From assembly GCA_000505065.1 (NCBI GenBank), contig AWSN01000001.1, forward strand, positions 487,772-551,771: DNA of 64,000 bases, written 5' to 3'. The DNA comes from Parcubacteria bacterium RAAC4_OD1_1 (GTDB lineage: Bacteria; Patescibacteriota; Minisyncoccia; Phycocordibacterales; UBA9973). Positions within the stretch are counted from its first letter, which is position 1, and each line of letters opens with the position of its first letter. Made by a program: the position numbers and the translations under genes. Positions 12,661 through 54,492 of this stretch are shown here, in pieces. Under the pieces are notes generated by a model, which was not told where the DNA came from, did no database searches, and was given only the letters and a program-made list of their open reading frames with translations.

Positions 12661-12692
12661 ACTAGAACATAAAAACTAGAACCTAGAACTTA
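12661..12692 (+). promoter_or_regulatory. ACTAG-repeat leader motif immediately upstream of the nusA start codon
   Basis: actagaacataaaaactagaacctagaacttaac ends 4 nt before the ATG. Confidence 0.5.
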
Positions 12693-12696
12693 ACAA

Positions 12697-13914
12697 ATGT
12701 TAGACCTAAAAACAATGAAGTCAGCACTGGAACAGCTTGAGCAAGAAAGAAAAATCCCTCGTGATAAAATCATAGATGCCATAGAACAAGCCTTAGCTGC
12801 TGCTTATAAAAAAGATTATGGTAAAAAAGGTCAAATAATCCGTGCCAAAATTGACATAGAAAATGGAGATATGGAATTCTACCAAGTCAAAATAGTAGTA
12901 GATGAATCTTTAGTCCGCATTCCTAAATTAGACGAAGAAGGAAATGAGGAAGAAGACGAAGAAATTGCAGAAGATGATGAAAGAGTTCGATATAATGAAG
13001 AACATCACATACTAATAGAAGATGCTAAAAAGATAAAAAACAACATAGTTTTAGAAGAAGAAATTATATTCCCATTAGAAAATAAAGACGATTTCGGAAG
13101 AATAGCAGCTCAGACAGCCAAGCAAGTTATAATTCAAAAAATTCGTGAAGCTGAAAGAGGGGCTATAATCGAAGAATATGGAAGTCGTGAAGGTGAAATC
13201 ATAAATGGTACAGTATCTAAAATAGAAAGAGGCGTCCTTTATATAGATTTCAATCGTGCGACAGGTATCATCCTCCCAGAAGAACAAATTCCAGGAGAAT
13301 TTTACAAGAGAGGAGATAGGATAAAAGCTTATTTATACTCTATAGAAGAAACCCCAAGAGGAGTAAATTTAAAACTTTCTCGTACTCACCCTGAATTTAT
13401 AGAAGGATTATTTGCAATGGAAGCTCCAGAAATATCAGGAGGAGTAGTAGAAATTAAATCCATAGCCAGAGAGCCGGGCTCACGTTCAAAAATATCTGTT
13501 TATTCCAATGATGAGCACATTGACCCAGTGGGATCTTGTGTCGGACAAAAAGGAGTCAGAGTTTCAACTGTTATGAGTGAGCTAGGTGGAGAAAAAATAG
13601 ACATAATACCTTGGTCACCTGATCCAGCTACATACATAAGTAGTGCTCTTTCTCCTGCTAATGTCTTAAATATTGAAACAGACGAAGAAGGACACAAAGC
13701 TACAATAGAAGTCGCCAATGATCAGCTTTCACTTGCTATTGGTAAAGGGGGGCAAAATGTCCGCCTTGCTGCAAAACTTACTGGATGGAGAATCGATATA
13801 AAAAGCATAGATAAGAACAATGAAACAGTTGGTGAAAACACAGAAGATGATAATATAGAAGAAGCTAGTGAAAACATCGATGACGGTATCATTGATGATG
13901 GCACAGAAGCATAA
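12697..13914 (+). CDS. nusA: Transcription termination/antitermination factor NusA
   Basis: The N-terminal domain is followed by S1 and KH domains (GQKGVRV, GKGGQNVRLAA) and an acidic tail. Confidence 0.9.
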   Translation: MLDLKTMKSALEQLEQERKIPRDKIIDAIEQALAAAYKKDYGKKGQIIRAKIDIENGDMEFYQVKIVVDESLVRIPKLDEEGNEEEDEEIAEDDERVRYNEEHHILIEDAKKIKNNIVLEEEIIFPLENKDDFGRIAAQTAKQVIIQKIREAERGAIIEEYGSREGEIINGTVSKIERGVLYIDFNRATGIILPEEQIPGEFYKRGDRIKAYLYSIEETPRGVNLKLSRTHPEFIEGLFAMEAPEISGGVVEIKSIAREPGSRSKISVYSNDEHIDPVGSCVGQKGVRVSTVMSELGGEKIDIIPWSPDPATYISSALSPANVLNIETDEEGHKATIEVANDQLSLAIGKGGQNVRLAAKLTGWRIDIKSIDKNNETVGENTEDDNIEEASENIDDGIIDDGTEA

Positions 13915-13968
13915 TTATTTGTATTAATTAAAGGTCATAAAAAATTATTATAAAAATTTATTAATTTA

Positions 13969-14001
13969 TACTAGTCACTAGAAACTAGTCACTAGAAACT
14001 A
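13969..14001 (+). promoter_or_regulatory. ACTAG-repeat leader motif upstream of hppA (tandem actagtcactagaaa x2), preceded by a TATACT -10-like box
   Basis: actagtcactagaaactagtcactagaaactaa ends 5 nt before the ATG. Confidence 0.55.
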
Positions 14002-14006
14002 ATTGT

Positions 14007-16037
14007 ATGAGTATATTTATCTGGTTTGCATTAGGGGCATCTGTTTTAGCAATCATTTATGGATTGTTCCTTATAAAAGTAGTATTGAGCAAAGACACGG
14101 GTGATGAGAAAATGAAATCTATCGCACTTGCTATCCAACAAGGAGCAAAAGCATATCTAAATCGCCAATATAAAACTATTGGAATTATTGCAATCATTCT
14201 TTTTCTTATAATTGGATTTGTTCCAATGTTAGGATGGATGATGGCGATAAGCTTCTTAGTCGGAGCGATACTTTCTGCTATTGCAGGATACATAGGTATG
14301 AACATTTCTGTTCGTGCTAACGTAAGAACAACCGAAGAAGCAAAAAAGGGTCTAAAAGAAGCTCTATCTCTTGCTTTTAAAGGAGGTTCTGTCACAGGAC
14401 TTCTTGTTGTTGGACTTGCTCTTTTAGGAGTCACATTATTTTATATAATTGCACAAAAATTTGTAGGGGCTCACGCTGTTAAATCTTTAGTGGGTCTTTC
14501 GTTTGGAGCATCACTTATTTCAGTTTTCGCTCGTCTTGGTGGAGGAATATTTACAAAAGCAGCTGATGTAGGAGCAGATCTTGTCGGTAAAATTGAAGCT
14601 GGTATCCCAGAAGACGACCCAAGAAACCCTGCCGTTATTGCTGATAATGTTGGAGACAATGTCGGAGACTGTGCAGGTATGGCTGCAGATTTATTTGAAA
14701 CTTATGCTGTAACATCTGTTGCAACTATGCTTTTAGGATCTCTAGTTTTCTCAGGTTTTGATAACGCAATAATATATCCCCTTGCAATTGGTGGAGTATC
14801 TATTATTTCTACAATCATCGGGACATGGTTTGTAAGACTTGGAAAAAAAGGAAATATAATGGGTGCACTTTACAAAGGGCTTATGGTGTCAGGATTACTT
14901 TCTGCTATTGCATTCTGGCCTATTACAAAATGGCTAATGACAGGTCAAGAAAAATATACAGTTGGTGGATTATATATAAGTGCACTTATTGGTATTATCG
15001 TTACTGCTCTTATAATTATCATTACAGAATATTATACTTCTACAAAATATTATCCAGTAAAATCTATAGCTCAAGCTTCCGTTTCAGGACATGGGACAAA
15101 TGTAATCCAAGGTCTTGCAATCTCTATGAAGTCAACAGCTCTTCCACTCATCGCGATCGTCGCAGGTATCTTAGCCTCTTATCATTTTGGTGAATTATAT
15201 GGTGTAGCAGTTGCTGCTATGTCTATGCTTTCTCTTACTGGTATCATTGTTGCAATTGATTCCTTTGGCCCTATTACAGATAATGCCGGTGGAATTGCTG
15301 AAATGGCTGAACTTCCAGAGTCCGTTCGTGCAGTCACAGATCCACTTGATGCAGTTGGAAACACCACAAAAGCAGTCACAAAAGGTTATGCTATCGGTTC
15401 AGCAGGACTTGCAGCACTTGTGCTCTTTTCATCTTACACACAAGAATTTGCAGATCTAGGAATTAATTTGAAATTTGATTTAGGAGATCCATTAGTTATC
15501 GTAGGACTTTTGATTGGAGGACTTCTTCCTTATTATTTCGGTGCACTTTCTATGGAAGCAGTAGGAAAAGCTGCGGGTAAAGTTGTAGAAGAAGTTAGAA
15601 GACAATTTAGAGAAATAAAAGGAATTATGGATGGAAGTGGTAAACCAGAATATGGCACATGTGTAGATATCGTCACAGGAAGTGCTATCAAACAAATGGT
15701 TGTCCCTGCTCTTATCCCAGTTCTTGCACCCATACTTGTAGGTATTATACTTGGACCAGAAGCTTTAGGTGGGCTTCTTGTCGGGTCAATAGTCACAGGA
15801 TTATTCGTTGCAATATCAATGACTTCCGGTGGTGGAGCATGGGATAATGCAAAGAAATATATTGAGCTTGGAAACTTTGGTGGAAAAGGATCAGATGCTC
15901 ACAAAGCAGCTGTCACAGGAGACACAGTTGGAGATCCTTACAAAGATACTGCTGGCCCAGCAATAAACCCAATGATAAAAATTCTAAACATTATTGCTCT
16001 TATTATCGTGCCTATATTAGTTGCAATTTGGTTTTAA
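14007..16037 (+). CDS. hppA: Membrane-bound proton-translocating pyrophosphatase
   Basis: The [19 protein letters not shown] and [17 protein letters not shown] motifs are present, and the 676-aa protein is polytopic. Confidence 0.9.
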
Positions 16038-16053
16038 AATTTAAAATAATCAC

Positions 16054-16091
16054 GCATCAAAAAATCCTCCGAATGGAGGATTTTTTGATGC
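16054..16091. terminator. Bidirectional terminator after hppA
   Basis: The sequence is gcatcaaaaaatcctccgaatggaggattttttgatgc. Confidence 0.7.
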
Positions 16092-16104
16092 GAACAACTT
16101 TATT

Positions 16105-16944
16105 TTAAATTTTATATATCTGATTTAATTTTTTAAATTCATCTAGATAGTCATTAATTCCTAAAATAGATTTTTCATATCTATCAATAAAAATATCCTT
16201 TTCCTCATCTGAATAATTTTCAGAAGCTTTAAAATCCTCCATACTTTTCTTTAGAACTTGATCTATGTATTTTTCAGAATTATTTATTAATTCTTCGGGT
16301 GTTCTATAATAACCAATTTTATGAGAGAAACTATTAATATTACCATTTCTATTCACAAATCTAATCAATGGAATAAAATCACCTTGCCCATCTACACTAT
16401 CACGACTTTTGATTGCTTTAAATTTTTTTTGAGCATCAAGTCTATTTTCAATTTCTGGAATACGTTCCTGAATTTCTTTTAATTTACCAGAAAGTAAATC
16501 AATCTGACTAGCAATTTCTGGATAGTCTTTTGATAAAACATCTCCTCCTTTATTTTGATCATCGTGGTATCCATAAATCTTAAATTTATTTTCAAGGTGA
16601 TCAATAGCTTCTTTTATCTGCCCATAAGCTTTCAATAAAGAATTTGGATCATTTTTTATGTTCTCGTCATCAAAATTTTCTAATTGCCAAGACATGTTGT
16701 TTAAATACATAGATCTAATCGTAAAGGATCCATCAGAAGATCTATTTTCTCTCTCCTTGTCGTATCTATTGTAAGGAATTCTTGCATCTTCAAGATTACT
16801 TAAAAGGTTCTTAGCGTCATCTCTTATATTTTGAATCATATCTCTAACTTCAATCAAACCATTTTGTAACTCTTTTGAAAATTCAGTATTATTTTCTTTT
16901 TTTTCAATTTCATTAGTTTTATTAAAAGATCCTTCTATTCCCAT
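16105..16944 (-). CDS. Hypothetical cytoplasmic protein (charged, coiled)
   Basis: A lone minus-strand 279-aa ORF with terminators on both sides. Confidence 0.5.
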   Translation of the reverse strand: MGIEGSFNKTNEIEKKENNTEFSKELQNGLIEVRDMIQNIRDDAKNLLSNLEDARIPYNRYDKERENRSSDGSFTIRSMYLNNMSWQLENFDDENIKNDPNSLLKAYGQIKEAIDHLENKFKIYGYHDDQNKGGDVLSKDYPEIASQIDLLSGKLKEIQERIPEIENRLDAQKKFKAIKSRDSVDGQGDFIPLIRFVNRNGNINSFSHKIGYYRTPEELINNSEKYIDQVLKKSMEDFKASENYSDEEKDIFIDRYEKSILGINDYLDEFKKLNQIYKI

Positions 16945-17103
16945 AAAATTTATTCGCTTTCGCGTAAGCTATTTATTAATACCCCAATTCTACCTTTTAT
17001 TAATATCTTTCGTCAAGAAACCAATTTAAAAATTAGGGTTTGTAAAATATCAATTTTTAGTATAAGATGTGAACGTTAGATTAATAGATTTAAAATCAAT
17101 AAT

Positions 17104-18186
17104 ATGAAAGTAAATATCAAAAAATTAGAAAAAAGTGAAGTGGAAATAGTGGGCACCATAGAAGCAGAGGAATTTATGAAATATGAAGAGAAAGCTCTCG
17201 AGAAGATAAACGAGCGTGTAGAGCTCCCTGGGTTTAGGAAAGGCAAAGCCCCTGTCGATATGATCAAAAGTTCAGTTCCTGAGATGGAGCTTCTAGAGGA
17301 AATGGCTGAAAAAGCACTTAGTGATAATTATGGAAAAATTTTAGAAGATAATAAAATTGATGCTATTGGTCGCCCACAAATTCAAATTACAAAAATCGGT
17401 AAAGGTTCTGATTTGGAATTCAAAATTTTAACTGCAGTTATTCCAGAAGTTAAATTAGGAGATTATAAAAAGATTGCAAAAACAGAAAATAGTAAAGAGG
17501 AAAATAAAAAAGAAATTGTTATTGAAGAAAAAGATGTTGAGAAAGTCATAGACGACCTTCGTAAAATGCGCGCAAATCAAAAGAACAATTCTCATGAAGG
17601 ACATGAGGAAATGACTGAGGAGGAACACGCACAAGCTCATGCAAATGAAACCGAGGTCCCAGAAAGTGAGTGGCCAGCTTTCGATGATGAGTTTGCAAAA
17701 AGTTTCGGCAATTTTAAAACTGCGGAAGAACTTAAAGAAAAAATTACATCAAATTTAAAAATAGAAAAAGAAACAGAAGCAAAAGACAAAGTACGGCTCG
17801 CAATCATAGAAGAGCTTGTGAAACAATCTGAAATAGAAATTCCAGAAATCCTTATCCAAAGTGAAACAGATAAAATCCTATACAAACTACAAGCAGACAT
17901 AACTAATGTCGGATTTAAATTCGAAGATTATTTAAAACAAATAAACAAAACCGAAGAAGATTTGAGGAAAGAATGGAGACCCGACGCCGAGAAACGTGCG
18001 AAACTCCAAATGATCATCCACGATATCTCTATAAAAGAAAACTTAAAACCAACAGAAGAAGAAATAGAAAATGACGTCGTCAAAATCACCGAGATGTATA
18101 AAGAAGCCGACCCCACCCGCGCCCGCGCCTATGTCGAACAAATGCTCGAAAATGAAAAAGTATTCACATTTCTTGAGAAACAATAG
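17104..18186 (+). CDS. tig: Trigger factor, short form apparently lacking the PPIase domain
   Basis: The N-terminal ribosome-binding motif ELPGFRKGKAP is present. At 360 aa the protein has an acidic linker where the FKBP domain would be. Confidence 0.7.
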   Translation: MKVNIKKLEKSEVEIVGTIEAEEFMKYEEKALEKINERVELPGFRKGKAPVDMIKSSVPEMELLEEMAEKALSDNYGKILEDNKIDAIGRPQIQITKIGKGSDLEFKILTAVIPEVKLGDYKKIAKTENSKEENKKEIVIEEKDVEKVIDDLRKMRANQKNNSHEGHEEMTEEEHAQAHANETEVPESEWPAFDDEFAKSFGNFKTAEELKEKITSNLKIEKETEAKDKVRLAIIEELVKQSEIEIPEILIQSETDKILYKLQADITNVGFKFEDYLKQINKTEEDLRKEWRPDAEKRAKLQMIIHDISIKENLKPTEEEIENDVVKITEMYKEADPTRARAYVEQMLENEKVFTFLEKQ

Positions 18187-18240
18187 AGTAAAAAATCTAA
18201 ACAAAAAAGAAGCCTAGTTTTTTAGGCTTCTTTTTGATTG

Positions 18241-18948: not shown

Positions 18949-19179
18949 TTTTTAAATTAATAATATAATTTTAATTCTCATCCCTAATATCTTTATTAAA
19001 ATACCAAAGACGAGAACTAAAATTCATTAACCAAAAAAATGAAAACTTTTATCAAAGAACTTAACCTCCTTTTTATATTATAGCATATTTAATACCATTT
19101 TGTCAAGGTATATAAAATCTCCATTTTTCCTGATATAATCACCATATTATCAGTAATTTCTCTAGTTGTTATTTTCTAA

Positions 19180-19207
19180 TCACTAGAAACTAGCCACTAG
19201 CAACTAA
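19180..19207 (+). promoter_or_regulatory. ACTAG-repeat leader motif upstream of clpP
   Basis: The sequence is tcactagaaactagccactagcaactaa. Confidence 0.55.
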
Positions 19208-19211
19208 TTTT

Positions 19212-19799
19212 ATGCTTATACCAACAGTTATAGAAAAAACAATGAATGGCGAGCGAGCTTACGACATATACTCTCGCCTTTTAAATGAACGAATAATATT
19301 TCTTGGAGGGCCGATCGATGATCACACAGCGAACCTCATCATCGCTCAGCTTCTTTACCTTGATCATGTTGATCCAAAGAAAGATATTAGTCTTTATATC
19401 AATTCCCCTGGTGGATCAGTCACCGCAGGTCTTGCGATTATCGACACGATGAATTTTATCAAAAGTGATGTCTCTACCATTTGCGTCGGCATCGCTGCTT
19501 CGATGGGGGCACTCATACTTTCTTCTGGTCAAAAAGGGAAACGTTTCACTCTTCCAAATTCTGAAGTTATGATCCACCAAGTGATGGGTGGAGCAGAAGG
19601 CCAAGCATCTGATATCGCCATCAATGCCAAGCACATTCTCCGCACAAAAGATACCTTGAACAAAATTCTTGCTCAAAATACAAATAAAAAAATGGAGCAA
19701 GTAGAAAAAGATTCCGACCGCGACTACTGGATGACAAGTGATGAAGCCAAAAAGTACGGCATCATCGATGAGATAATCTCAAAACCAAAAGGAAAATAA
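19212..19799 (+). CDS. clpP: ATP-dependent Clp protease proteolytic subunit
   Basis: The catalytic region has the motifs GIAASMGA and MIHQ. Confidence 0.9.
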
Positions 19800-19813
19800 A
19801 TTCCGGTAAATCA

Positions 19814-19849
19814 ATAGCCTCGCAAGCTTTGCTTGCGAGGCTATTTTTT
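19814..19849 (+). terminator. Terminator after clpP
   Basis: The sequence is atagcctcgcaagctttgcttgcgaggctatttttt. Confidence 0.7.
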
Positions 19850-21611: not shown

Positions 21612-21805
21612 TTAAATACAATAAATTATTTTTTTGTCAAACAGTATACCCCTTGTTTTAAAATTAGCTTGGTATATAATAACATTATACCTATTTTATT
21701 AGGGATCGTTTCAAACGGTCGAAATTATTCAGTAAGTTGTAGTTTTTAAATTTTTAATTCTTGTATTTTTTAGAATTTAAAATACAGAAACTATAAACTA
21801 ATCGT

Positions 21806-22078
21806 ATGAATAAACAAGCATTAGTGGAACTTGTTCATGAAAAATTAGGCGGTACAAAAGTACAAGCCGAAGAAATTGTGAACGCAATGTTTGATGCTAT
21901 CGTTGCTACTTTGAAAAAAGGAGACGAAGTATCAATCGCAGGTCTTGGAATCTTTTCAGTAAAGGCTCGTGCAGCTAGAATGGCTCGCAACCCTAAAACT
22001 GGAGAAACTGTTAAAGTCGCTGCAACTAAAGTACCAAAATTTAGAGCAGCAAAAGCTCTTAAAGACGCAGTTAAATAA
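21806..22078 (+). CDS. hup: DNA-binding protein HU
   Basis: 90 aa with the motifs GLGIFSV and ARNPKTGE. Confidence 0.9.
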   Translation: MNKQALVELVHEKLGGTKVQAEEIVNAMFDAIVATLKKGDEVSIAGLGIFSVKARAARMARNPKTGETVKVAATKVPKFRAAKALKDAVK

Positions 22079-22264: not shown

Positions 22265-22286
22265 AAGTTATTTTTTAAAAAATATT

Positions 22287-23036: not shown

Positions 23037-23097
23037 AATTTTATTATAACATATGAGTCAAGAAACAATTTGATATTGTTTTTGATAATTTTGTCGG

Positions 23098-24363: not shown

Positions 24364-24368
24364 AATAT

Positions 24369-27147: not shown

Positions 27148-27996
27148 TTAACTATTCATTTCCTTAAATAATTCTTCTGATTCTTTTTCGGTTATGTCTA
27201 TTTTTTTAGAAATTTCCCATATAACCTTAAACTGAGAAGCCACCATATCAGCAAATTCTTTACTTTCAAGAATAAAACCAAAATTATCCTTTGGAGAAGA
27301 AATGCAGGCAACCTTATTTTCATAAATCCAATAACCCATAGAAAAATCTATTCCCTCTGGGGCAACTCTTATTTCCCTGAGAAAAACTTCGCCAGTCCCC
27401 ATAAATGGATAATCATTCATATCAATAATATGCTTTTCTGGCCAAATAACATTCATATAAATATTTCTTTTCACTCTTTCAATATTAAATTGTTTAAAAA
27501 ATTCTTCTCCAAAAACTTCAATAACAAGTTTAATTGGAATATAAGCTTTAGCTTCCATATTTCTGTAAAGAAGTATGTCTCTTAAAATATTCTGAACTTC
27601 TTTTTTGCTTTCAAATATCTGAAAACGGGGAACAGAGGTTGGTTTTAAACCTTTTTGAATTTCCAAAAATGCTTTTGTTATGACATCCTTAGTATCATTA
27701 ATATTTTTTATCTGTTCATCCAAGACCATATTTATCTTTTCTGCACTAGAAACTAAAAAAGTTTTTACTCCATCTTTTTGAGAATGAACAACTAAACCTT
27801 TTTCTTGAAGATTCTTTAGATAACCATAAAGAGATGGGCGAGAAAGGCCAGTCTTTATTGCAATTTTTCCAGCTGTTTGTTCACCGTTTTCTAGTAAAAA
27901 TAGGAAAGTTTTTATTTCGTCTTCTTTAATACCTATATTTATAAGTTTCTGGCTGAGCATATTTAATATTATATTCCTTAGCTTTTCTGTTGTCAA
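27148..27996 (-). CDS. TrmB-like HTH transcriptional regulator
   Basis: The N-terminal winged helix GEQTAGKIAIKTGLSRPSLYGYLKNLQEKGLV matches the TrmB family. Confidence 0.55.
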   Translation of the reverse strand: MTTEKLRNIILNMLSQKLINIGIKEDEIKTFLFLLENGEQTAGKIAIKTGLSRPSLYGYLKNLQEKGLVVHSQKDGVKTFLVSSAEKINMVLDEQIKNINDTKDVITKAFLEIQKGLKPTSVPRFQIFESKKEVQNILRDILLYRNMEAKAYIPIKLVIEVFGEEFFKQFNIERVKRNIYMNVIWPEKHIIDMNDYPFMGTGEVFLREIRVAPEGIDFSMGYWIYENKVACISSPKDNFGFILESKEFADMVASQFKVIWEISKKIDITEKESEELFKEMNS

Positions 27997-29570: not shown

Positions 29571-29770
29571 CCAATCATTGTATCACATACTTTAATGTCG
29601 GAAAACAAAATACAGAAGAGAGTTATTTTGCCCGCACACTTAATTTGGTGTAGCTTTTTGGTTCTGCTGTTAAAGTAATTTTGTAATATTGATATATTTT
29701 ATAAACATAAAAGATATTATTATCTAAATATTCTGAAAAAGCAGAACAACACCAAATTAAGTGTGTGGGC

Positions 29771-42088: not shown

Positions 42089-42109
42089 TAAAAATGGTAA
42101 AATGATTTA

Positions 42110-44859: not shown

Positions 44860-45767
44860 GGAAATATAAAGCCAAAAAGCATCTGGGGCAAAACTTTTTA
44901 AAATCTAAAGAAGCAATTAAAACTATATGTGATGCTGGAAAAGTAGAAAAAGAAGATATTATCTTGGAAATTGGCCCCGGGAAAGGGGTTCTCACTGAGG
45001 AGTTGCTAAAAAGAGGGGCAAAAATTCTAGCAATTGAAAAAGACAATGATTTAATTAATTTTTTAATAGAAAAATTTGAATCTTTTCTTCCGTCCACACC
45101 GGGTATGGACATAGATACAAAAAGGTTAAATATAATAAATGAAGATATTTTGGATTTTGATATTTCAAAATATGGACTTTTAGATAAAAAATACAAAATA
45201 ATTGCAAATATTCCATATAATATAACAGGGGCAATAATAAAGAAATTCTTAAGTGAGATCAAAAATAAGCCTATTTTAATGGCTATTTTGGTGCAAAAAG
45301 AGGTTGCGGAAAGAATTGTTGCAAAAAACAGAAAAATAAATAAGCAAAAAACAGAAGCTGTCCAGGCCTTGCCTGGACAGTCCAGGCCTTGCCTGGACAG
45401 TGGGGGGAAGGAGAGTATATTGTCATTGAGTGTGAAAGCTTATGGAGATCCTAAATATATAATGAAAGTATCAAAAAAATATTTCTCACCAGCCCCAAAA
45501 GTGGACTCCGCGATAATACTTATAGATAATATTTCCGATAAAAATTTTAAAAACAATGATGAGGAAAAAACCTTTTTTGATCTAGTTCATGCTGGATTTA
45601 GTCATAAAAGAAAATTATTTATAAAAAACATAGAAAATTTAGATTACCAAAAAGAAAAAATTAAAAAAATGTTTGAAATATTAGAAATTGATAAAAAAAT
45701 AAGAGCAGAAGATATACCTTTTTATAAATGGATAGAAATGAAAGATTTTTTAACTACAAAAAACTAG
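44796..45767 (+). CDS. rsmA: 16S rRNA (adenine1518/1519-N6)-dimethyltransferase RsmA/KsgA carrying three in-frame P2 palindromes
   Basis: LGQNFL and EIGPGKGVLT motifs. The start ATG overlaps the RAYT stop (ATGA). One P2 copy sits in the N-terminal extension (TVQARPGQW), and a tandem pair sits mid-gene (AVQALPGQSRPCLDSGG). Confidence 0.8.
   Translation: MNINKNKFNSVRNTVQARPGQWKYKAKKHLGQNFLKSKEAIKTICDAGKVEKEDIILEIGPGKGVLTEELLKRGAKILAIEKDNDLINFLIEKFESFLPSTPGMDIDTKRLNIINEDILDFDISKYGLLDKKYKIIANIPYNITGAIIKKFLSEIKNKPILMAILVQKEVAERIVAKNRKINKQKTEAVQALPGQSRPCLDSGGKESILSLSVKAYGDPKYIMKVSKKYFSPAPKVDSAIILIDNISDKNFKNNDEEKTFFDLVHAGFSHKRKLFIKNIENLDYQKEKIKKMFEILEIDKKIRAEDIPFYKWIEMKDFLTTKN
45358..45407. repeat. 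Tandem double P2 palindrome inside rsmA
   Basis: ctgtccaggccttgcctggacag is followed immediately by tccaggccttgcctggacagtgggggg. Confidence 0.9.
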
Positions 45768-45803
45768 AATTTCTTATAAAAAAGTTATATAATAAAACCA
45801 TAA

Positions 45804-46682: not shown

Positions 46683-46705
46683 ATGATATAATAAAATGAT
46701 TTATT

Positions 46706-49591
46706 ATGATAAATAAATTTATCAAAAACTACATACTGATCTCCTTAATTGTTTTAATGCAAATTATCACGCCATTAACATCAAGAGCTAGTGTTAATTT
46801 AAATTGGGACAATCCAAATAGTGGTAGAAATCCATATAAATTTAAATTATCTGACTATTTAAATTCAAATATGATGATGCAGGTTGTTGGTTGTACTGGA
46901 GTAGTAGATAAAGTAACACTTTCTATTGGTGATCTTGCTAGTGGAGATCTAGAAAGTCTACAAGACAGATGGACTAGCATTAAAAGAAAAACTGAAGAAG
47001 TAAAAAAATTAGTTATTGAAACAAATAAAGCATTGAGTGTAGCAATGGTACCCAAAGATCCTGGACCAGCCTTAACAGATATAGCTACAGACAGAATAAA
47101 TGAAACAGTTAATACCAAAAACGAAGAACTTCAAAATGCAGTACAAAAACTAAAAGATCAAAATAAATCTGTAAAGATGAGAGAGGAGTGCCTTAATGGT
47201 ATCGCTTATACTCTAGCAAAAAACCAACTTGTAGCAATGACAAAAAGTACTATGAACTGGGTAGCAACGGGGTTTGATGGTGATCCAATGTATGTAAGAA
47301 ATATGCAATTATTTGTCGGAGATATTGAGAGTAGAATAATGAATGCTGAATTAGAATATTTTCAAAATGCAAATCCAAGCAGATACCCATATGGTAGAGA
47401 CTTCGCTAGGTATTACTACGGAGCATACAATTCTGAAAAAAATTTTAGAGATTCAATGTCTCAAACATTAACTAGGCACCTAACTAATGGAAAATCAATC
47501 GAAGATTATACTTATGATTTTTCTGCTGGTGGGTGGGATGCTTGGCTTGGACTTACCCAAGAATCACAAAACAATCCTATAGGATATGCGATAGAAACAA
47601 GTAATTACATATCTAATAAACAACAAGAAGAAATTGAAAATACAAAACAAGAACTAACTCAAAATAATGGGATTATTTCTCAAAGGGTTTGCAAGGTGAC
47701 AAGTGCCACTAAAAAACTAGCTCAAAAAGAAATAAACAAACGAGAAGCTAATCAATACGTTATAGATGCTCAGAATAAAGTTGATGAGGCAGAATATTAT
47801 TATGAGCAAGCAGGTGGTAATGGAAATGACACAGAAGAACTCCAAGATGCAGCAGAAATACTAGCAAATGCAAGAATAGATCTTGAAAAAGCTTTGGCTT
47901 ACCAAGCATCGCTCGATGCAGAAAGTACTGATGCTGCAGAAGGTTGTGATGAATGGGAAATTGTTACTCCAGGAAGTTTTATACAAGATAAAATAAGCAC
48001 ATATCTAAATACACCAGAAACACAATTAGAAATGGCTGACACAATCAATGATGTCTTAAATGTTGTATTTGCAAAATTAATAGATAAATTAAGAATTGAT
48101 GGACTCACCGGGCTTGGATATAGCGCTGTATCAAATAGTAATTATGACTGGCCAACTTCAGTAAATATATCTGGATATGATAGTTCTGGAAACCAGTATG
48201 GTGGAGAAGGAATAAGTACTAGAAATTTTGATTTAACAAAAGATCTAGGTAATACTTACAATCATTCAGATACAACAAATTTAGGAACATGGGATGCTTC
48301 CATAAATAAAGCTATCAAAATAAAAGACAATACAACGACATCCCTTGTTCCTGGAAAGGGTCAAACAAATAGTTATTATACTGTCACAGTAGCTGGTAAA
48401 ACAAAACTTTTTGACGATGATTTAGGTTGGGAAGTTGGAGATAGAGCATTCTTTAATGGTATCTCTTGGCAAAATTGGAAAAAAGATCAAACTAGCCCAA
48501 TAATAAACAGAGGGATAATACAAATACAGCAAGATTACTTAGTTGTAGCAAAAGAACTTTTAAAAATATTACCAGGTGTAATGCCAGCACTTGGTGAACT
48601 TGATTATTGTATACCAGGACCAAATCCAAATTGGGAAATAAATATGAGTGACAACAGTGTAGCTTTCTTTGATTTTGTATCTGAATTAAAAACCACATAT
48701 AAACAAGCAGATGATTGGTTTGAAAAAGATTCTGTTGACATAACATGGGCAGGGGAAGACGCAAATAGTGATGCTTATAAAAATTATCGTAGTATATTTG
48801 CAAACTCTTATTTATCTGGATGGAAAGATAATTGGACTAGCTGGAGCTTAGCTATGAATACAAAAATTATGAATTATATAGATGTTCTTGCTAATGGCGA
48901 AGACTGGACAGGAGAAAAAGGGGTAGCTGAAGCAGAAGAAGAAATAGGAGAATTGATAAGTAATATTGTTGAAAGTTTTTCAATGTTCAAAGATGAATAT
49001 GGTAAAACAATAAGTGATACTTATGGAACGATTCAACAAGAATATTTCTTGAATGAAAAGACAAACACCAAAACTCCAAATAATGCTTATATACCTATGG
49101 CAAAAGAAGGTCTTACTTTAACTAAAAAAATTACAGATTATAATAATGAGGTTTCAGATTCAATACAAGATCTTAAAAATACAATGGGTGAAACAGATTC
49201 AACGATATCTAAATTAGAAAAAATAAGAAGTGAGGTTGGAAAAATAATAAAAGCAGCTCAAGATAGAAGAGATGAAACTATAACAATAGCATTAAATGCA
49301 AAAGGAGAAAATTTTACTACAAATACTGCCTATAAAATTAAATACCAGGTATGTCTAAATGAAGAAAATATAGATTATCTAAAAGACTATGATCTTACAC
49401 AAGAAGAAGAAAATAGGTGTGATGACAGAATAGATAATGATTTCGATGGACTCATAGACTCAAAAGACCCAGATTGTTCAGGATCAGGAAACACCAACAC
49501 AGAAAGAGACAGAAGAAGTGGTGGTAATAGTATTTATAATGATTACTATGAAAGTGATCAACCTTATATAAACACAGATCGAGGATATTAA
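46706..49591 (+). CDS. Large secreted hypothetical protein with C-terminal Cys-bracketed DxDxDG calcium-binding-like loop
   Basis: 961 aa with a signal peptide. The C-terminal motif CDDRIDNDFDGLIDSKDPDC follows a coiled-coil region. Confidence 0.5.
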   Translation: MINKFIKNYILISLIVLMQIITPLTSRASVNLNWDNPNSGRNPYKFKLSDYLNSNMMMQVVGCTGVVDKVTLSIGDLASGDLESLQDRWTSIKRKTEEVKKLVIETNKALSVAMVPKDPGPALTDIATDRINETVNTKNEELQNAVQKLKDQNKSVKMREECLNGIAYTLAKNQLVAMTKSTMNWVATGFDGDPMYVRNMQLFVGDIESRIMNAELEYFQNANPSRYPYGRDFARYYYGAYNSEKNFRDSMSQTLTRHLTNGKSIEDYTYDFSAGGWDAWLGLTQESQNNPIGYAIETSNYISNKQQEEIENTKQELTQNNGIISQRVCKVTSATKKLAQKEINKREANQYVIDAQNKVDEAEYYYEQAGGNGNDTEELQDAAEILANARIDLEKALAYQASLDAESTDAAEGCDEWEIVTPGSFIQDKISTYLNTPETQLEMADTINDVLNVVFAKLIDKLRIDGLTGLGYSAVSNSNYDWPTSVNISGYDSSGNQYGGEGISTRNFDLTKDLGNTYNHSDTTNLGTWDASINKAIKIKDNTTTSLVPGKGQTNSYYTVTVAGKTKLFDDDLGWEVGDRAFFNGISWQNWKKDQTSPIINRGIIQIQQDYLVVAKELLKILPGVMPALGELDYCIPGPNPNWEINMSDNSVAFFDFVSELKTTYKQADDWFEKDSVDITWAGEDANSDAYKNYRSIFANSYLSGWKDNWTSWSLAMNTKIMNYIDVLANGEDWTGEKGVAEAEEEIGELISNIVESFSMFKDEYGKTISDTYGTIQQEYFLNEKTNTKTPNNAYIPMAKEGLTLTKKITDYNNEVSDSIQDLKNTMGETDSTISKLEKIRSEVGKIIKAAQDRRDETITIALNAKGENFTTNTAYKIKYQVCLNEENIDYLKDYDLTQEEENRCDDRIDNDFDGLIDSKDPDCSGSGNTNTERDRRSGGNSIYNDYYESDQPYINTDRGY

Positions 49592-49605
49592 TTAATAAAT
49601 TATTT

Positions 49606-51696
49606 ATGGAAAACAAACCTAAAAAAAGTAAAGCGTTCATAATAACATTTATACTAGTACTAATAATACTTTTGGTGGGTTATTTATTATTTAAAAATAA
49701 AAATGGAATCTTTCAAATAAATAGTACAGAAAATACAAACAAAACTTTTGAATCTCTTTCGGAAACAAAAGAAGTAAAAGATTTGGGATATATAGACGTA
49801 GATACTGCAAATGAATGTATCTCTATTTCTGTAATTGCTGAAGAGGATATTTTTAAAGGTGAAGCAGTGTATGTATCCGGAGTAGGAGCAAACAAAGAAC
49901 CATTAGCAAAGAAAGCTATAGCAAATGATGAAACAAAATCAAAAGTAATTGGTGTCGCTATGGCAAATATTTTAGCTGGTACTACAGGAATAATAGCAAA
50001 TGATTGTATTGTGACAGGATTAAATACAGACAGAAATGAGGAGACTGTATGGCAAATAGGAGATATCCTCTACTTAAGTGATACAATATCAGGAGCTCTT
50101 ACAAAAAACCCTCCATCAAACAAAATAATAGTAGGAGTAGTAAAAACAGTTAATGCAATTGATGGATCTATTAAAGTGGGAGGAGCTGGAACAAATATTT
50201 TTGACTTATCGCAAGCTATTAAAGATGCAGGGATAGACACCAGCAAAGGAATAGTTTACGCAATAGAAAAATTGAAAAAACTGTTTGGAAATATTTTTGG
50301 ATATGAATACAATGGAGGAGAGTTTGATGCTAATGGACTAGGTGAGTGGGTTTGGGATGAAGAATATGGTGGATTTGTTTGGAAATGGAAAGGTGGTACA
50401 GGCGGATTTACTGGGCCAGATTTTCCAGATTTTGGATTTGAAAAAGCTTGTAGTAATGAAAACGATGATGACGGGGACGGATTTACAGATATAAATGATC
50501 CACAATGTCATATCGATGGAATTATTACAAATGAATATGTGCCTACACATTATTCAGAAGAGATAAATGCCATAAATCCAAATTTATATGCTTGCAGCAA
50601 TACACTTGATGATGATAACGATGAATTAATAGATATAAATGATCCACAATGTCATATCGATGGAATTATTACAAACGAATATGTGCCTACACATTATTCA
50701 GAAGAAATAAATGCTCCAAATTCAGATATAATACCGACACCAGATAGTGTTTGTGAAAATGGTATGTCCAACTATCCACTTTGTACAATTAACGAAAATG
50801 GAAATTGTGGAAATGGTGCGATAAACCCACCAATATGTACAGAATTTAGTAATGAAGATGAAACAGATCCAACAGGTGAAAATACTGAAACAAATATGTG
50901 TGCAGTTTTTGATGAACATCCTCTTGAATTTACAGAGAGTGAAAAAGCACAGCTTGCAGAACTTCTTCGAGAATTTTATTTAATTGCTCCTACTCTCAAA
51001 ACAGAAGATGATATAGATGCTCTATATACTGAAATAAATAGATATGAGCAATTAATAGATCAGTCAAAAAAACTTACCAAACAGTGTTATCTTGAATCTG
51101 CATATAGTGCACAATGGGAATATAATGATCCAACATGGACATATGCAGGGGCTGGATCATTCTGTGCAAGAAATCCAGAATACTGTAGTAAAAAGGGTGT
51201 CACGAGTCAAACAAATTGTGATCTTTATGGATGCGCAGATGGAGTAGATGTATTTAATGATAAATACACAGGCCCTACAAAAAGAGGAGGGAACCCTTGG
51301 TTTAGGTCAATAACAATAGGTGGATATGTAGATAACACAAAATACAGCACACCAAAGATAAATACTGACGTAAATTATGTTATGAAAAGTCACGGCAATG
51401 ATAGACCAGAAAGCTCAAAACATTCACAAGAAGTACTAGAGAGTGGGTGGTGGACTTATGCAACGCCTATTTTTGGTGTGTTTACAACATTTAAAGCTTT
51501 TGATGAAAAAAATATGGTGCCTGATTATTATTTTACAATACCAAATACAATATATACTCCACTAATTACAAAACTACCTGCATCTCAAAATGGTAGAAAC
51601 TTTCAACAAGATTGGGAATTCTATTTTGATTTTGATTTAAACAAGGTTATGTTGGAAAGACTTAAAGAGTTTGAGTTGTTACTTTATATCTGGTAA
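49606..51696 (+). CDS. Hypothetical membrane-anchored extracellular protein with duplicated DDDGDG...DPQC calcium-binding-like repeats
   Basis: 696 aa with an N-terminal TM helix. A ~55-aa repeat occurs twice, encoded by a near-identical ~85-bp direct repeat. Confidence 0.5.
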   Translation: MENKPKKSKAFIITFILVLIILLVGYLLFKNKNGIFQINSTENTNKTFESLSETKEVKDLGYIDVDTANECISISVIAEEDIFKGEAVYVSGVGANKEPLAKKAIANDETKSKVIGVAMANILAGTTGIIANDCIVTGLNTDRNEETVWQIGDILYLSDTISGALTKNPPSNKIIVGVVKTVNAIDGSIKVGGAGTNIFDLSQAIKDAGIDTSKGIVYAIEKLKKLFGNIFGYEYNGGEFDANGLGEWVWDEEYGGFVWKWKGGTGGFTGPDFPDFGFEKACSNENDDDGDGFTDINDPQCHIDGIITNEYVPTHYSEEINAINPNLYACSNTLDDDNDELIDINDPQCHIDGIITNEYVPTHYSEEINAPNSDIIPTPDSVCENGMSNYPLCTINENGNCGNGAINPPICTEFSNEDETDPTGENTETNMCAVFDEHPLEFTESEKAQLAELLREFYLIAPTLKTEDDIDALYTEINRYEQLIDQSKKLTKQCYLESAYSAQWEYNDPTWTYAGAGSFCARNPEYCSKKGVTSQTNCDLYGCADGVDVFNDKYTGPTKRGGNPWFRSITIGGYVDNTKYSTPKINTDVNYVMKSHGNDRPESSKHSQEVLESGWWTYATPIFGVFTTFKAFDEKNMVPDYYFTIPNTIYTPLITKLPASQNGRNFQQDWEFYFDFDLNKVMLERLKEFELLLYIW

Positions 51697-51779
51697 TTTA
51701 AGAGATTTTGTTTTTAGAATTTGGTATAATAAAATAAGTTTTGTTAAAAAAGATAAATGAAACCTGTTAGAAATAAAAA

Positions 51780-54464
51780 ATGAAGAAGTTTTTTTCCTAC
51801 ATTTTAATATCAATAGTTATGGTGGCCAACCTCCTCGCGCCTTTTAGTATGAAATTGGGGAGTAATTATTTGCCAAGAATTGAAAAAAATGAAGCGAGTG
51901 CAGATGCAAAGCAAATAACAATGACAACAACAGCGAAGGGAACAACAATAAACGCAACAGTAACAGCTGTATTTACGGGTGAAGCTAATCAAATAAATTT
52001 TGCTTCTGTTTTTCTATATGATCAATACCCATATGATGAAAACAATAAACCAGCTGAAATAGATTCTATTGATAGTAGAGATGTTTTTGGAGAATTTAAA
52101 ATTTTAAACAATGATGAGGATATAACCAAAACAGCAACCGTGTCATTTGACAATCTAACTCCTGAAAAAACATATTATTTGGTAGCAGTAGGTGGTACAA
52201 AAAGTATCTTTAAAGCTTTAATTAATTTAAACACACTAAGATTTAATAAACTTTTTGAGTCAACAAGTAAAACTGGTTATACAAATGCAATACCACAAGA
52301 AACAGGAATGAAAGACTCCCAAGTTTTAATCCAAGGATCTGGAACAGCATCTGCTTTTAATGCAGACGCGGCTCTACCTTCTTGTAAGGCAACAGATGCA
52401 ACTACTTGGGTTCGAGGTTGTGTAGTTAGACTTATTTATTATATTATTTTTGTGCCAACATCTTTTTTCTTTGCATTAACTGGAATGTTTCTTGATTCAA
52501 CATTTGCTTATACAGTAGATAGTGCTTCATATCAAACTCAATTCATAACCCAAAGTTGGGGAATAGTTAGAGACCTTTGTAATATGTTCTTTATATTTGT
52601 ACTTCTATATATTGCTTTTTCAACAATACTCGAAATACATGGATTTAATACAAAAAAGACAATTATTAATGTAATAATCATTGGTCTTTTAATAAATTTC
52701 AGTTTATTTGCTGTGAGAATTATGGTGGATGCATCAAACATACTAGCTAGGGTTTTCTATAACTCAGATACAATAAAAATTACTAACGTCTCAGCCTTAA
52801 ATATCAGTAATATGGTAGATAAACCAAACGAAAATGGAGTAATTTCTATCTCGGCTGCTATTGTAAACAAAATAAACCCACAAGTTTTAATATTAAAAGC
52901 AAATGGCAATGAACAAGCTGGAATGGGTGGTTTCTCAACTATCTCTTATGTTGTTATTGTGTTACTTGCTTCTATTGTAAATATAGTGGGCATAATAGTA
53001 TTCCTATCTACAGGATTACTTTTTGTGACAAGAGTCATAGGGCTTTGGATAGCGATGATACTTTCTCCACTTGCATTTTTTACCTATATAATTCCATCTT
53101 GGAGTAAACAAAAAATGATAGGATGGGAAAACTGGTGGCCAGACACTCTAAAAATGGCTTTCCTTGCTCCTATTTTTATTTTCTTTATGTATATAATTCT
53201 TCAATTTATGGATACAGGACTTGGGCTTTTTGATGCAGCAGAAGAAGAAGGAATGACATTAATATTAGCAATAGTTATTCCTTTCATATTTATAATGATA
53301 CTTCTCTGGCAAGCGAAAAAAATTGCAAGCGATATGTCTGGAGAAATGGGACAATCTATAACTAAAGGTGTCGCTGCTGTCGGTGGCCTTGCTCTCGGTG
53401 GGGCAGCTTTGGGAGTAGCAGGATTGGGTAGAAAGTTTATAGGTGGAACAATGGCAAAAGCCTCTAGTGGAAATACTGCAACTCAAAAATATCTGGCAGC
53501 ACAAGGAGACCCTAATGCTATGGCTAAATTAAGCAAATGGGAACAAATGAAAGGTAGAATGGGGGCAAGAGTTGGTATGGATAAAGTTTACGGGAGGGTT
53601 GGAACAGATGCAAATGGAAATAAAGTTATTACCGGAGGGGTTGGAAAATATGTAAACGATAAACAAAAACATGTTGGTAATATAGATCATGCGAGACATG
53701 AAATGGATGAAACTAAAAAAGCAGCTGGGCTTACTGGGGTTACAAACTTAACCGGGGAAGATGAGAAGAAGCTTGAATCAACTTTTGCAAAAAATAAAAG
53801 ATCTGAAGTTGAAGCTAATGTAAGAAGAGGAACGGATAATAAAAAAGATATTGCATTAAAAGATAATGATGGTAATGCACTATTAGATGGACAGGGAAAT
53901 GAAATTAAGGGTGAAGATGCTTGGAAAAAAGAAAAGAGAAGTGAAATTGAAACTAATTACATAAATGATCCTAATAATAATATAAAAAGTGTAGAAGATC
54001 TAACAGATAAAGATAAGAAAAATATTGAAAATGAATTAAATAAACAATTTAACCTTGTTCTTAAAAATACAACAGAAAAAGAAATTAAAAGTTTATTTGA
54101 AGATATTAAGAAAGAGGCAAATACAAAAGTTGGTTCTCTTGATAGAGTAACAGCAACAGCAAACAAAAGAAGCTTTGACATAAGAAACATTTCAGATGTT
54201 AATAAAACAGACAAAAGAGATGGTTTTATGACAAAAACAGCTGCATTTTTGGCTTCTACTGTCGCACTTGGTGTGAGGACAGGATTTAAAACTTCAGGAA
54301 TTAACATTGGAACAAGTCAAAGGGATTTTATTTTGGATTTAAAAAATACAATTACTGAAGCATTTAAAAATGTAAAAATTGAAGTCCCTAAAGCTTCTGG
54401 TGGAGGAGATCATGGGGGTGGGGGACACGGAGGAGGCGATCACGGAGGTGGGGGACACCATTAA
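51780..54464 (+). CDS. Large polytopic membrane protein, possible VirB6/TrbL-like T4SS channel component, with Gly/His-rich C-terminal tail
   Basis: The signal peptide and ectodomain are followed by at least 6 TM helices, a coiled C-terminal domain, and a GGGDHGGGGHGGGDHGGGGHH tail. Confidence 0.35.
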   Translation: MKKFFSYILISIVMVANLLAPFSMKLGSNYLPRIEKNEASADAKQITMTTTAKGTTINATVTAVFTGEANQINFASVFLYDQYPYDENNKPAEIDSIDSRDVFGEFKILNNDEDITKTATVSFDNLTPEKTYYLVAVGGTKSIFKALINLNTLRFNKLFESTSKTGYTNAIPQETGMKDSQVLIQGSGTASAFNADAALPSCKATDATTWVRGCVVRLIYYIIFVPTSFFFALTGMFLDSTFAYTVDSASYQTQFITQSWGIVRDLCNMFFIFVLLYIAFSTILEIHGFNTKKTIINVIIIGLLINFSLFAVRIMVDASNILARVFYNSDTIKITNVSALNISNMVDKPNENGVISISAAIVNKINPQVLILKANGNEQAGMGGFSTISYVVIVLLASIVNIVGIIVFLSTGLLFVTRVIGLWIAMILSPLAFFTYIIPSWSKQKMIGWENWWPDTLKMAFLAPIFIFFMYIILQFMDTGLGLFDAAEEEGMTLILAIVIPFIFIMILLWQAKKIASDMSGEMGQSITKGVAAVGGLALGGAALGVAGLGRKFIGGTMAKASSGNTATQKYLAAQGDPNAMAKLSKWEQMKGRMGARVGMDKVYGRVGTDANGNKVITGGVGKYVNDKQKHVGNIDHARHEMDETKKAAGLTGVTNLTGEDEKKLESTFAKNKRSEVEANVRRGTDNKKDIALKDNDGNALLDGQGNEIKGEDAWKKEKRSEIETNYINDPNNNIKSVEDLTDKDKKNIENELNKQFNLVLKNTTEKEIKSLFEDIKKEANTKVGSLDRVTATANKRSFDIRNISDVNKTDKRDGFMTKTAAFLASTVALGVRTGFKTSGINIGTSQRDFILDLKNTITEAFKNVKIEVPKASGGGDHGGGGHGGGDHGGGGHH

Positions 54465-54492
54465 TTAGTGATTAGTAACTAGTGACTAGTGA
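54464..54492 (+). promoter_or_regulatory. ACTAG-repeat motif (reverse orientation) upstream of gene 54514
   Basis: ttagtgattagtaactagtgactagtgat is followed by an AAGGA Shine-Dalgarno. Confidence 0.45.

Follow-up and report, generated by a model that had tools for sequence, protein, structure and literature searches.

How a start codon is chosen without pairing between a Shine-Dalgarno (SD) sequence and the anti-SD of 16S rRNA is an open question, above all for internal cistrons, which cannot be leaderless. It is raised directly by a 64,000-nucleotide stretch, hereafter the window, of the genome of Parcubacteria bacterium RAAC4_OD1_1 (contig AWSN01000001.1, positions 487,772 to 551,771), where short tandem arrays of heptamer or octamer units, many built on the core ACTAG, lie directly before the start codons of nusA, hppA, clpP, two ribosomal-protein genes and a gene beginning at 54514. 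The organism, which on the basis of exact protein matches also carries the label Ca. Nomurabacteria, has a genome of 693,530 bp recovered from Rifle aquifer sediment (Kantor 2013, PMC3812714). Proteins ETB64043-ETB64081 belong to this genome. The sequence examined amounted to 84 of these 693 kb and comprised the window plus two 10-kb flanks (L203 and L205); other L-numbers denote metagenomic contigs of relatives, except for the planctomycete L056.

The period-7/8 arrays constitute one local tandem-repeat family that takes up the final ~30 nt of the 5' leader or of the spacer between two cistrons. They are tentatively interpreted below, with a confidence that falls a little short of even, as RNA-level leader modules that would serve SD-independent expression, rather than as an operator; we infer that they are transcribed, and that they may influence translation or mRNA stability.

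Tandem Arrays Adjacent to Start Codons

Four ACTAG sites reported in an earlier note on the window were all confirmed in the sequence, each on the forward strand. The nusA leader array (12661-12696) reads ACTAGAAC-ATAAAA-ACTAGAAC-CTAGAAC-TTAACAA and is followed by the ATG at 12697; it is degenerate, with a period of 7 and ~4 copies. The hppA array (13970-14003), ACTAGTC ACTAGAA ACTAGTC ACTAGAA ACTAA-TTGT, fills the 3' end of the 92-nt nusA-hppA spacer, 4 nt separating it from the ATG at 14007, and was additionally called by Tandem Repeats Finder as a period-14 repeat of 2.3 copies with 100% match. The clpP array (19180-19208), tcACTAGAA ACTAGCC ACTAGCA ACTAA-TTTT, likewise has 4 nt before the ATG at 19212. 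The fourth array (54464-54494) is composed of the reverse-oriented units TTAGTGA TTAGTAA CTAGTGA CTAGTGA, begins right at the stop codon of the upstream gene 51780-54464, and lies 20 nt before the ATG at 54514. Tandem Repeats Finder called a period of 7 with 3.6-4.3 copies, and with its filtered output included the four loci have 3.6-4.6 copies. Pfam searches confirmed the identities of NusA, H+-PPase (hppA), ClpP and a TrmB-like helix-turn-helix protein proposed in the note, and returned no family for gene 54514.

The motif set proved to be larger than these four sites. On the reverse strand, an octamer array preceding rpsJ, the gene for S10 (4212-4247, (ACTTTATA)x4.1), ends 9 nt before the ATG at 4204, and a second preceding rplC, the gene for L3 (3740-3775, (ACTTTATA)x4.4), terminates in GAACTAAATAT-ATG, 6 nt before the ATG at 3733. 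A third octamer array was located in the rpsQ-rplN spacer in flank L203, giving four ACTAG loci and three octamer loci in 84 kb, and a degenerate copy was recognised in the leader of an HU gene (21775-21805, forward strand; Pfam Bac_DNA_binding), where ACAGAA ACTATAA ACTAATCGT ends in AACTAATCGT-ATG with the start codon at 21806. Four leaders, those of rplC, hppA, clpP and HU, have in common the ending AACTAA-N4-ATG. The array-bearing genes rpsJ, rplC, rplN, nusA, hppA, clpP and HU are housekeeping or highly expressed genes, and arrays are carried by only ~8 of the ~70 genes examined.

The note had proposed scanning for enrichment upstream of start codons and, when undertaken on the 84 kb, such an analysis demonstrated that placement next to starts is highly non-random. 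Inspection of the 60 nt 5' of each open reading frame, together with filtered repeat-finder output, revealed exactly six arrays with a period of 6-9 and at least three copies in the 64 kb, all of them intergenic, with gaps to the start codon of 6, 9, 7, 5, 5 and 20 nt. When arrays were placed at random within the 53 intergenic regions (5.9 kb), none of 20,000 trials put five of the six within 9 nt of a start, and the start-adjacent placement holds equally in the 250-nt nusA and 263-nt clpP intergenic regions, where there is room elsewhere. Allowing up to one mismatch, ACTAGNNACTAG was matched 18 times against 2.8 expected from dinucleotide shuffles, and CACTAGAAACTA five times against 0.5; the pentamer ACTAG alone was not enriched (56 against ~71 expected), and the signal therefore consists in tandem clustering. 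The available assemblies (ENA, Logan and NCBI GCA_003543255.1) were 100% identical over 15-22 kb, arrays included, a comparison with no power on copy number. In nearly all start-adjacent arrays every unit contains TAA, TAG or TGA; the presence of stop codons in every frame was considered as a selected property and is not relied upon, being a post hoc observation for which about half of random AT-rich heptamers would qualify.

Two features adjoin the reversed array. Immediately 5' of it, the gene for an 894-aa protein encodes a Gly/His-rich C-terminal repeat (GGGDHGGGGHGGGDHGGGGHH) specified by a 30-nt tandem repeat at 54402-54458. On its 3' side, the array precedes the first gene of a cluster (54514-62419) resembling a type IV secretion or conjugation system, with PrgI-like, TraC-like, VirB4/TraG-type P-loop ATPase, YkuD/T4SS-pilin-like and PG_binding genes.

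Start Regions without Shine-Dalgarno Sites

None of 52 window genes, array genes included, has an SD-like 4-mer (a match of at least 4 nt to AGGAGGT, 4-13 nt 5' of the start). The absence of an SD site is therefore the norm in RAAC4_OD1_1, and not a peculiarity of the array genes: the earlier observation that nusA, hppA and clpP lack one stands, as it does for all 52 genes, while the AAGGA (54495-54499) taken as an SD before gene 54514 is not a credible one and was rejected, lying 14 nt from the ATG in a gene set devoid of such sites at 4-13 nt. The CCTCCT anti-SD motif has been detected in only 48% of Parcubacteria 16S sequences (Tsurumaki et al. 2022, PMC9297842); no 16S rRNA gene is present in the window or its 10-kb flanks. 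The start regions have A at -9 in 40 of the 52 genes (77%) and T at -1 in 33 (63%). In at least seven window genes a (TGn)TATAAT-type box lies 6-7 nt 5' of the ATG, a leaderless arrangement exemplified by boxes at 12447-12460 (gene 11766-12446, reverse strand), 23037-23050, 29571-29585, 42090-42109 and 63667-63680, and many promoters of this genome look leaderless.

Predicted Hairpins in the Array Leaders

Of the three roles envisaged in the note for the motif, that of a leader RNA structure is the best supported: the array leaders are predicted to fold into hairpins that end 6-20 nt before the AUG, and the S10 hairpin is kept, with compensatory pairs, in three relatives. The rpsJ array is the predicted 3' arm of a hairpin spanning the tuf-rpsJ spacer (minimum free energy (MFE) -19.8 kcal/mol, z -3.05), of which the 5' arm is an inverted partner array of GGAAAGTT-type on the same strand (4254-4284, converted from L203 6495-6525) beginning 7 nt past the tuf stop. 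Similarly, the 5' arm of the rpsJ-rplC hairpin (MFE -17.0 kcal/mol, z -1.5) is an inverted partner of AAAGTT-type units on the reverse strand (3789-3828; called at 3794-3828 with a period of 16 by Tandem Repeats Finder) that begins 4 nt past the rpsJ stop, and a third hairpin is predicted for the rpsQ-rplN spacer (MFE -16.9 kcal/mol, z -3.2). All three spacers conform to one plan: [stop]-[AAAGTT-type array]-~10-nt loop-[AACTTT-type array]-6-14 nt-[ATG].

Comparable structures are predicted for the ACTAG leaders. The clpP array forms the 3' arm of a leader hairpin (MFE -13.2 kcal/mol, z -3.3, with none of 200 shuffles folding equally well), its first units pairing with a degenerate inverted partner, TCTAGTTGTTATTTTCTAA, at 19161-19179 on the forward strand (17 nt, 82% complementary, 5-nt loop). 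The presence of TGaTATAAT, an extended -10 box, at 19132-19140, 72 nt before the ATG, implies a 5' untranslated region of ~65 nt that would contain this hairpin. The gene 54514 array folds on itself via ACTAGT (MFE -8.9 kcal/mol, z -3.4, again matched by none of 200 shuffles). In the nusA leader (12641-12680, forward strand), 12 nt of the array, ATAAAAACTAGA (12669-12680), are paired at 92% complementarity with an upstream arm, TCTTGTTTTTAT (12641-12652), the odd middle unit of the array being the part engaged in this pairing; the 80-nt upstream fold has an MFE of -11.5 kcal/mol, a z of -2.6 and a hairpin-ATG gap of 12 nt. The hppA array is self-complementary through ACTAGT, with arms at 13972-13989 and 13984-14001, a z of -2.9 and a gap of 11 nt in the equivalent fold.

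When the 80-nt regions upstream of all 52 genes were folded, the leaders of rpsJ (z -4.5), 54514 (-3.2), HU (-3.1), clpP (-3.0), hppA (-2.9) and nusA (-2.6) were all among the 15 most structured, and their hairpins ended 6-20 nt before the ATG (6 nt for HU). The rplC leader fell outside this group (z -0.7), since its 5' arm extends beyond the 80 nt that were folded. At the gathering threshold of Rfam 15 only tRNAs passed in the window, and permissive scans of the leaders, including against ribosomal-protein leaders, returned weak generic hairpin matches far below threshold.

Equivalent Loci in Relatives

L3 homologues were searched and the corresponding contigs read across the S10 operon, the identities quoted being those of L3. 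The rpsJ leader, octamer-type in the window, is CTAGAAC-type in relatives with 92% and 83% identical L3. In the latter (L518) the tuf-rpsJ spacer reads [stop]-TTAGTTG TTAGTTG CTAGTGA TTAGAGA-loop-(CTAGAAC)x4.4-7 nt-ATG, its CTAGAAC being the unit found at a different gene, nusA, in the window; in the former (L517) the spacer has a degenerate ACTAG-type version. L518 also carries AATCTTN arrays before rplC and rplN, and both contigs have further heptamer arrays before rpsH and rplX. Among relatives at ~80% identity, L519 and L521 have a tuf-rpsJ spacer of 33-34 nt, as against one of 80 nt with a non-repetitive hairpin in L520; the rpsJ-rplC spacers of all three are 4-12 nt, and the rpsQ-rplN spacer of L520 is 7 nt.

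An almost gap-free alignment of the L517, L518 and L520 tuf-rpsJ spacers yields a consensus hairpin of 23 pairs, six of them changed on both sides, with single-sequence fold z values of -4.0, -2.3 and -5.0, respectively. This comparison indicates that what is conserved is the predicted start-adjacent hairpin, the arrays being only one way of building its arms.

For hppA, 80 metagenomic orthologs were taken. Candidate-phyla-like relatives whose hppA has no SD also have 7-8-nt repeats abutting the ATG, with units that differ: AATTCNT x4 in L123, whose hppA is 88% identical, together with an inverted GAATTAC array beginning at the nusA stop; ATTAGAA x3 in L190; a CTAG-type unit in L198; AACAATTT in L126; and ATTACTC in L125. 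The layout stop-array-loop-inverted array-ATG recurs in L123 (nusA|hppA), L126, L144, L517 and L518, and CTAGAA(C)-type units recur in relatives at other genes (rpsJ of L517 and L518, hppA of L190 and L198). Unit families evidently move between loci and turn over quickly. The suggestion that the motif is an operator for a global or TrmB-like regulator is not supported by these data, the units being replaced or absent at the orthologous hppA, nusA and rpsJ leaders.

The ~70 nt before tuf (upstream of 4292-5491, reverse strand) are conserved in L518-L521 as ...TATGTTGGTA.TTTGAATAAAGTA..GTTCTCGTATATTTTATTCT..TATCAACCAATAAAAATAT-ATG, a level of conservation far above that of neighbouring spacers which suggests a conserved leader element.

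Comparison with Known Repeat Systems

The closest precedent is the TAACTGA heptamer of marine Beggiatoaceae, which occurs as mostly forward direct repeats immediately before start codons mostly lacking an SD, is enriched at genes for translation and found within ribosomal-protein operons, one case preceding L3, and for which S1, Csp and CsrA have been suggested as factors (MacGregor 2015, PMC4679880). The two systems have in common period-7 direct repeats (2-6 copies for TAACTGA) and stop codons in every frame; TAACTGA is one unit reused at many genes, and in the 84 kb examined here ACTAG-type units serve four loci and octamers three. In the window, five of the six arrays are forward and lie 5-9 nt before starts without an SD, one being reversed. 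They differ in phylum (here Patescibacteria), in units (here ACTAGNN and ACTTTATA octamers, two window arrays having a period of 8) and in genomic context, ~25% of genes in the TAACTGA genome having an SD as against none of the 52 here. Furthermore, whereas TAACTGA repeats were reported as unstructured, with one inverted case only, the present arrays are mostly predicted hairpin arms with inverted partners, and several unit families coexist and are swapped between close relatives.

Heptamers are the commonest long simple-sequence repeats, for which polymerase slippage has been proposed, according to the account of Mrazek 2007 given in PMC4679880, and in Nostoc, heptamer repeats occur near promoters and start codons, where deletion changed reporter expression (preprint, bioRxiv 10.1101/2022.06.06.494920). 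The arrays described here resemble these in being intergenic heptanucleotide tandem repeats of sporadic phylogenetic distribution, but the long simple-sequence and cyanobacterial arrays are often long and spread over intergenic DNA, whereas those of RAAC4_OD1_1 have ~4 copies and are pinned to starts.

A literature search found no paper describing such arrays in candidate-phyla bacteria; relative to the known heptamer repeats, the phylum, the units and the hairpin arms are new. Bacterial mRNAs can be stabilised or processed through 5'-proximal or intercistronic stem-loops, of which the ompA 5' hairpin and REP elements are examples. The predicted hairpins resemble them in lying in 5' untranslated regions and between cistrons and in forming genome-specific sequence families; unlike these known stem-loops, they have arms of tandem 7-8-nt units with periodic mismatches and a foot tied to the start codon, not to the 3' end of the upstream gene.

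An IS200-like Y1 transposase gene (Pfam Y1_Tnp) is present at 11748-12500, with three AGATAGTGGTTAAACCACTATCT palindromes in and around it (11756, 12243 and 12477); related palindromes occur upstream of a gene in L203 and next to the Y1 gene in L123, and gene and palindromes together resemble a RAYT/REP arrangement. The arrays do not belong to the palindrome family of this transposase, the flanking palindromes being unrelated to ACTAG and ACTTTATA.

Candidate Explanations

On the explanation tentatively preferred here, replication slippage would make and remodel the repeat arms, and an array would form a modest stem-loop by pairing with an inverted partner, with sequence upstream of it, or internally via the palindromic CTAG. 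Lying ~6-20 nt before the AUG, the 3' foot of this structure would leave an A-rich, unpaired, SD-free start region, which the module would delimit, insulate and present for SD-independent initiation on leadered and internal cistrons, thereby mimicking the short or leaderless 5' ends used elsewhere in RAAC4_OD1_1; it would probably also protect the mRNA or mark it for processing. A wider generalisation, considered improbable, is that start-adjacent tandem-repeat hairpins are a dedicated and evolvable initiation/expression signal in Parcubacteria without SD pairing, and perhaps in Beggiatoaceae, Bacteroidota and cyanobacteria, the leader being read by the ribosome (S1) or an oligomeric RNA-binding factor, its unit number being tuned by slippage, and the whole providing internal cistrons with the equivalent of a leaderless 5' end.

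Several results weigh against the leader-module explanation. Shuffling destroys the repeats, and the z-scores quoted above are in consequence inflated; several of the hairpins are short; and with dinucleotide shuffles the nusA and hppA leaders are not significant (z -0.6 in a 63-nt fold and -1.2, respectively). The nusA gene of L123 has no array, nor have the rpsJ and rplC spacers of L519, L520 and L521 or the rplN spacer of L520; the array-free spacers at ~80% L3 identity and the array-free nusA of L123 together imply that arrays are dispensable for these genes. Moreover, the S10-leader hairpin is most stable in the non-array form of L520 (-30.1 kcal/mol) and weakest in the array form of L518 (-13.2), so that homogenisation into repeats does not improve structure. 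In L126 (10545-11800), heptamer arrays and array hairpins directly abut two tRNA genes and flank the tmRNA gene, and the role of such arrays therefore cannot be in translation alone.

The foremost alternative, though unlikely, is that the arrays are neutral or nearly neutral simple-sequence repeats, produced by heptamer-favouring slippage in AT-rich promoter-proximal DNA of highly transcribed genes and, because stop codons occur in all frames, kept only where no reading frame is broken. Such an origin would be in keeping with the slippage proposal for heptamers cited above from PMC4679880, with the abundance of heptamer arrays of many cores (in viral contigs, and at least 120 ACTAG matches across phyla, as detailed below), with the turnover of units between close relatives and the absence of arrays at some orthologous loci, and with the occurrence of arrays beside tRNA and tmRNA genes and at gene 3' ends. 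It does not explain why the 5-9-nt placement before starts could not be reproduced by random intergenic placement, even with 250-nt regions included, why arrays are concentrated on housekeeping genes, or why AACTAA-N4-ATG is common to four leaders, one of them of a different unit type. The retention of the S10-leader hairpin with compensatory pairs, and the recurrence of one architecture at equivalent spacers of three genomes whose units differ, also argue against neutrality.

A second alternative, regarded as doubtful, is that the arrays are periodic sites for an oligomeric protein that co-regulates the array genes, either an RNA-binding ring of the HutP/TRAP kind recognising UAG every 7 nt or a DNA regulator such as the TrmB-like protein. 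The UAGs contacted by HutP are spaced at 7 nt (U498, U505 and U512), three to a face, in two sites joined by a 12-17-nt linker (PMC2425495), and all four ACTAG arrays present at least three UAGs (3-5 copies) at exactly this spacing, sometimes as two runs with a 10-15-nt linker, in leaders that can also fold as hairpins. In addition, one unit family serves four window loci, CTAGAA(C)-type units occur at different genes in related genomes, and in three relatives NAG is retained every 7 nt along the 5' arm of the S10 leader; this last periodicity is not independent evidence, being demanded also by CUA pairing within the hairpin arm. Unlike HutP and TRAP sites, equivalent arrays at the same positions lack NAG or have a period of 8, the unrelated units including ACTTTATA, AATTCNT, AACAATTT and AATCTTN, and there is no terminator to antagonise. 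In the set of window proteins scanned with Pfam, none was of the HutP, TRAP, CsrA or Csp-like kind, and in the DNA-binding version a 7-bp period would put successive sites on different faces of the helix.

The proposed connection with the TrmB-like regulator derived from an isolated 13-mer, CACTAGAAACTAA, which was indeed found on the forward strand at 27744-27756, inside the TrmB-like gene on the opposite strand, where it reads LVSSA. The expectation of 0.002 occurrences attached to it holds only for one pre-specified word; with all array-derived 13-mers considered, 0.32 occurrences elsewhere in the window were expected and one was seen. The 13-mer is thus probably a chance match outside the system, and the link between the arrays and the TrmB-like gene was rejected as being at chance level.

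It is more improbable that the arrays are DNA promoter modules supplying a -35 to -10 region for leaderless or near-leaderless mRNAs, including from internal promoters in the ribosomal-protein operon. Some plausibility comes from the leaderless-type promoters of at least seven genes, in which a -10 box lies 6-7 nt 5' of the ATG, and from the position of the last ACT. In hppA (GAAACT), HU (TAAACT), clpP (GCAACT) and rplC (TGAACT) it ends exactly 6 nt ahead of the ATG, and in rplN (TAAACT) the distance is 7 nt, a register that corresponds to a -10 hexamer; TATAAC occurs inside the ACTTTATA units, and arrays adjoin tRNA genes, where promoters are expected. Nevertheless, the sigma-70 consensus is matched by none of the arrays, clpP and rplC lack the critical A at position 2 of the hexamer, a strong extended -10 box is present 72 nt before the clpP ATG, and neither the reversed 54514 array nor the arrays right after stop codons fit. 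A promoter scan found no more sites than in shuffles, a result that, like that of a terminator scan, was uninformative.

As regards a translation element in place of the SD, also suggested in the note, the context fits, with no SD site in 52 genes and part of the Parcubacteria lacking an anti-SD, while a strong, sequence-specific or rRNA-pairing form does not: units vary, most SD-less genes are arrayless, relatives manage with 4-34-nt spacers, and arrays occur at tRNA and tmRNA genes. The octamer unit UAACUUUA does resemble the T7 gene 10 epsilon enhancer, UUAACUUUA. A true SD substitute, in which ACUAG, AACUAA or ACUUUAUA would pair with an altered 16S 3' end or other exposed rRNA, is scarcely credible even in a genome free of SD sites, in a group where many members lack CCTCCT in 16S (PMC9297842) and with AACTAA-N4-ATG at SD distance in four genes, since arrays adjoin only ~8 of ~70 genes examined and their units differ between genes and close relatives in which rRNA is conserved.

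Whichever explanation holds, the 0.69-Mb genome offers a compact candidate set of eight repeat-hairpin leaders before ribosomal-protein, nusA, clpP, HU and hppA genes, and the corresponding leaders of relatives vary naturally, some having exchanged the unit, some lacking an array and some forming a hairpin without repeats. Should the arrays prove to matter for expression, a function would follow for the unexplained heptamer repeats of Beggiatoaceae and cyanobacteria; if they are functionless, they would be a clean case of simple-sequence repeats gathering at the 5' ends of highly expressed genes, a bias relevant to gene calling and motif discovery in candidate-phyla genomes.

Heptamer Arrays in Other Phyla

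A four-unit ACTAG pattern gave at least 120 matches in one-per-species genomes, the phyla among the matches listed being Bacteroidota, Planctomycetota, Acidobacteriota, Gemmatimonadota, cyanobacteria, Firmicutes, Proteobacteria and Patescibacteria. About one fifth of the arrays among these listed matches lay no more than 30 nt upstream of the start of an open reading frame (31 forward as against 17 reverse), many had an inverted partner array nearby, and the starts that they abutted included those of dnaJ, sodA/B, sucD, asparagine synthase, trmD, nuoK, a release factor and a pilC-like gene; in five of eight array-adjoining proteins the Pfam profile alignment starts at residue 2-7. In viral contigs, the four-unit pattern was found in 74 stretches for ACTAG and, for control cores of the same base composition, in 112 (GATCA), at least 120 (AGTCA) and 9 (ACGTA). 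The possibility of a special ACTAG element across bacteria was accordingly rejected, the control cores being equally or more frequent with the sole exception of ACGTA; heptamer arrays are a general class of which ACTAG is one member.

An 8-kb contig (L056) from a metagenome-assembled genome of Thermoguttaceae contains six ACTAG(C/A)A arrays. A conserved GC-rich flank, ...GYSAGCGCGTY (e.g. CCGCGTCAGCGCGTC), precedes at least four of them, and one array ends 3 nt short of the start codon of an asparagine synthase gene; the arrays of this planctomycete look like a repeated promoter or leader cassette.

Additional Features of the Window

Between the transposase and nusA, the forward strand at 12440-12595 contains a promoter-like TTAACA-N16-TATAAT (12440-12467) followed ~100 nt later by a hairpin and T-run (~12558-12590). 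The hairpin and T-run are kept in L123 (~1925-1955) and match no Rfam family; the element is possibly an attenuator or a small RNA.

A GC-rich palindrome family, (ACTGT)CCAGGCCTTGCCTGG(ACAGT), has eight copies in the window against 0.03 expected (23666, 28832, 30936, 44094, 44308, 44840, 45362 and 45382) and occurs also in L203 at ~12270-12310 and ~12550-12590. Some copies lie just before starts (rplX, rplE and gene 30972), some apparently inside open reading frames, and two form a tandem pair at 45360-45401; the family looks REP-like.

Just past the 3' end of the window, L205 carries a dnaA-dnaN plus rpmH-rnpA-yidD-yidC arrangement (6471-9425), which places the chromosomal origin region probably within ~2-5 kb of the window end.

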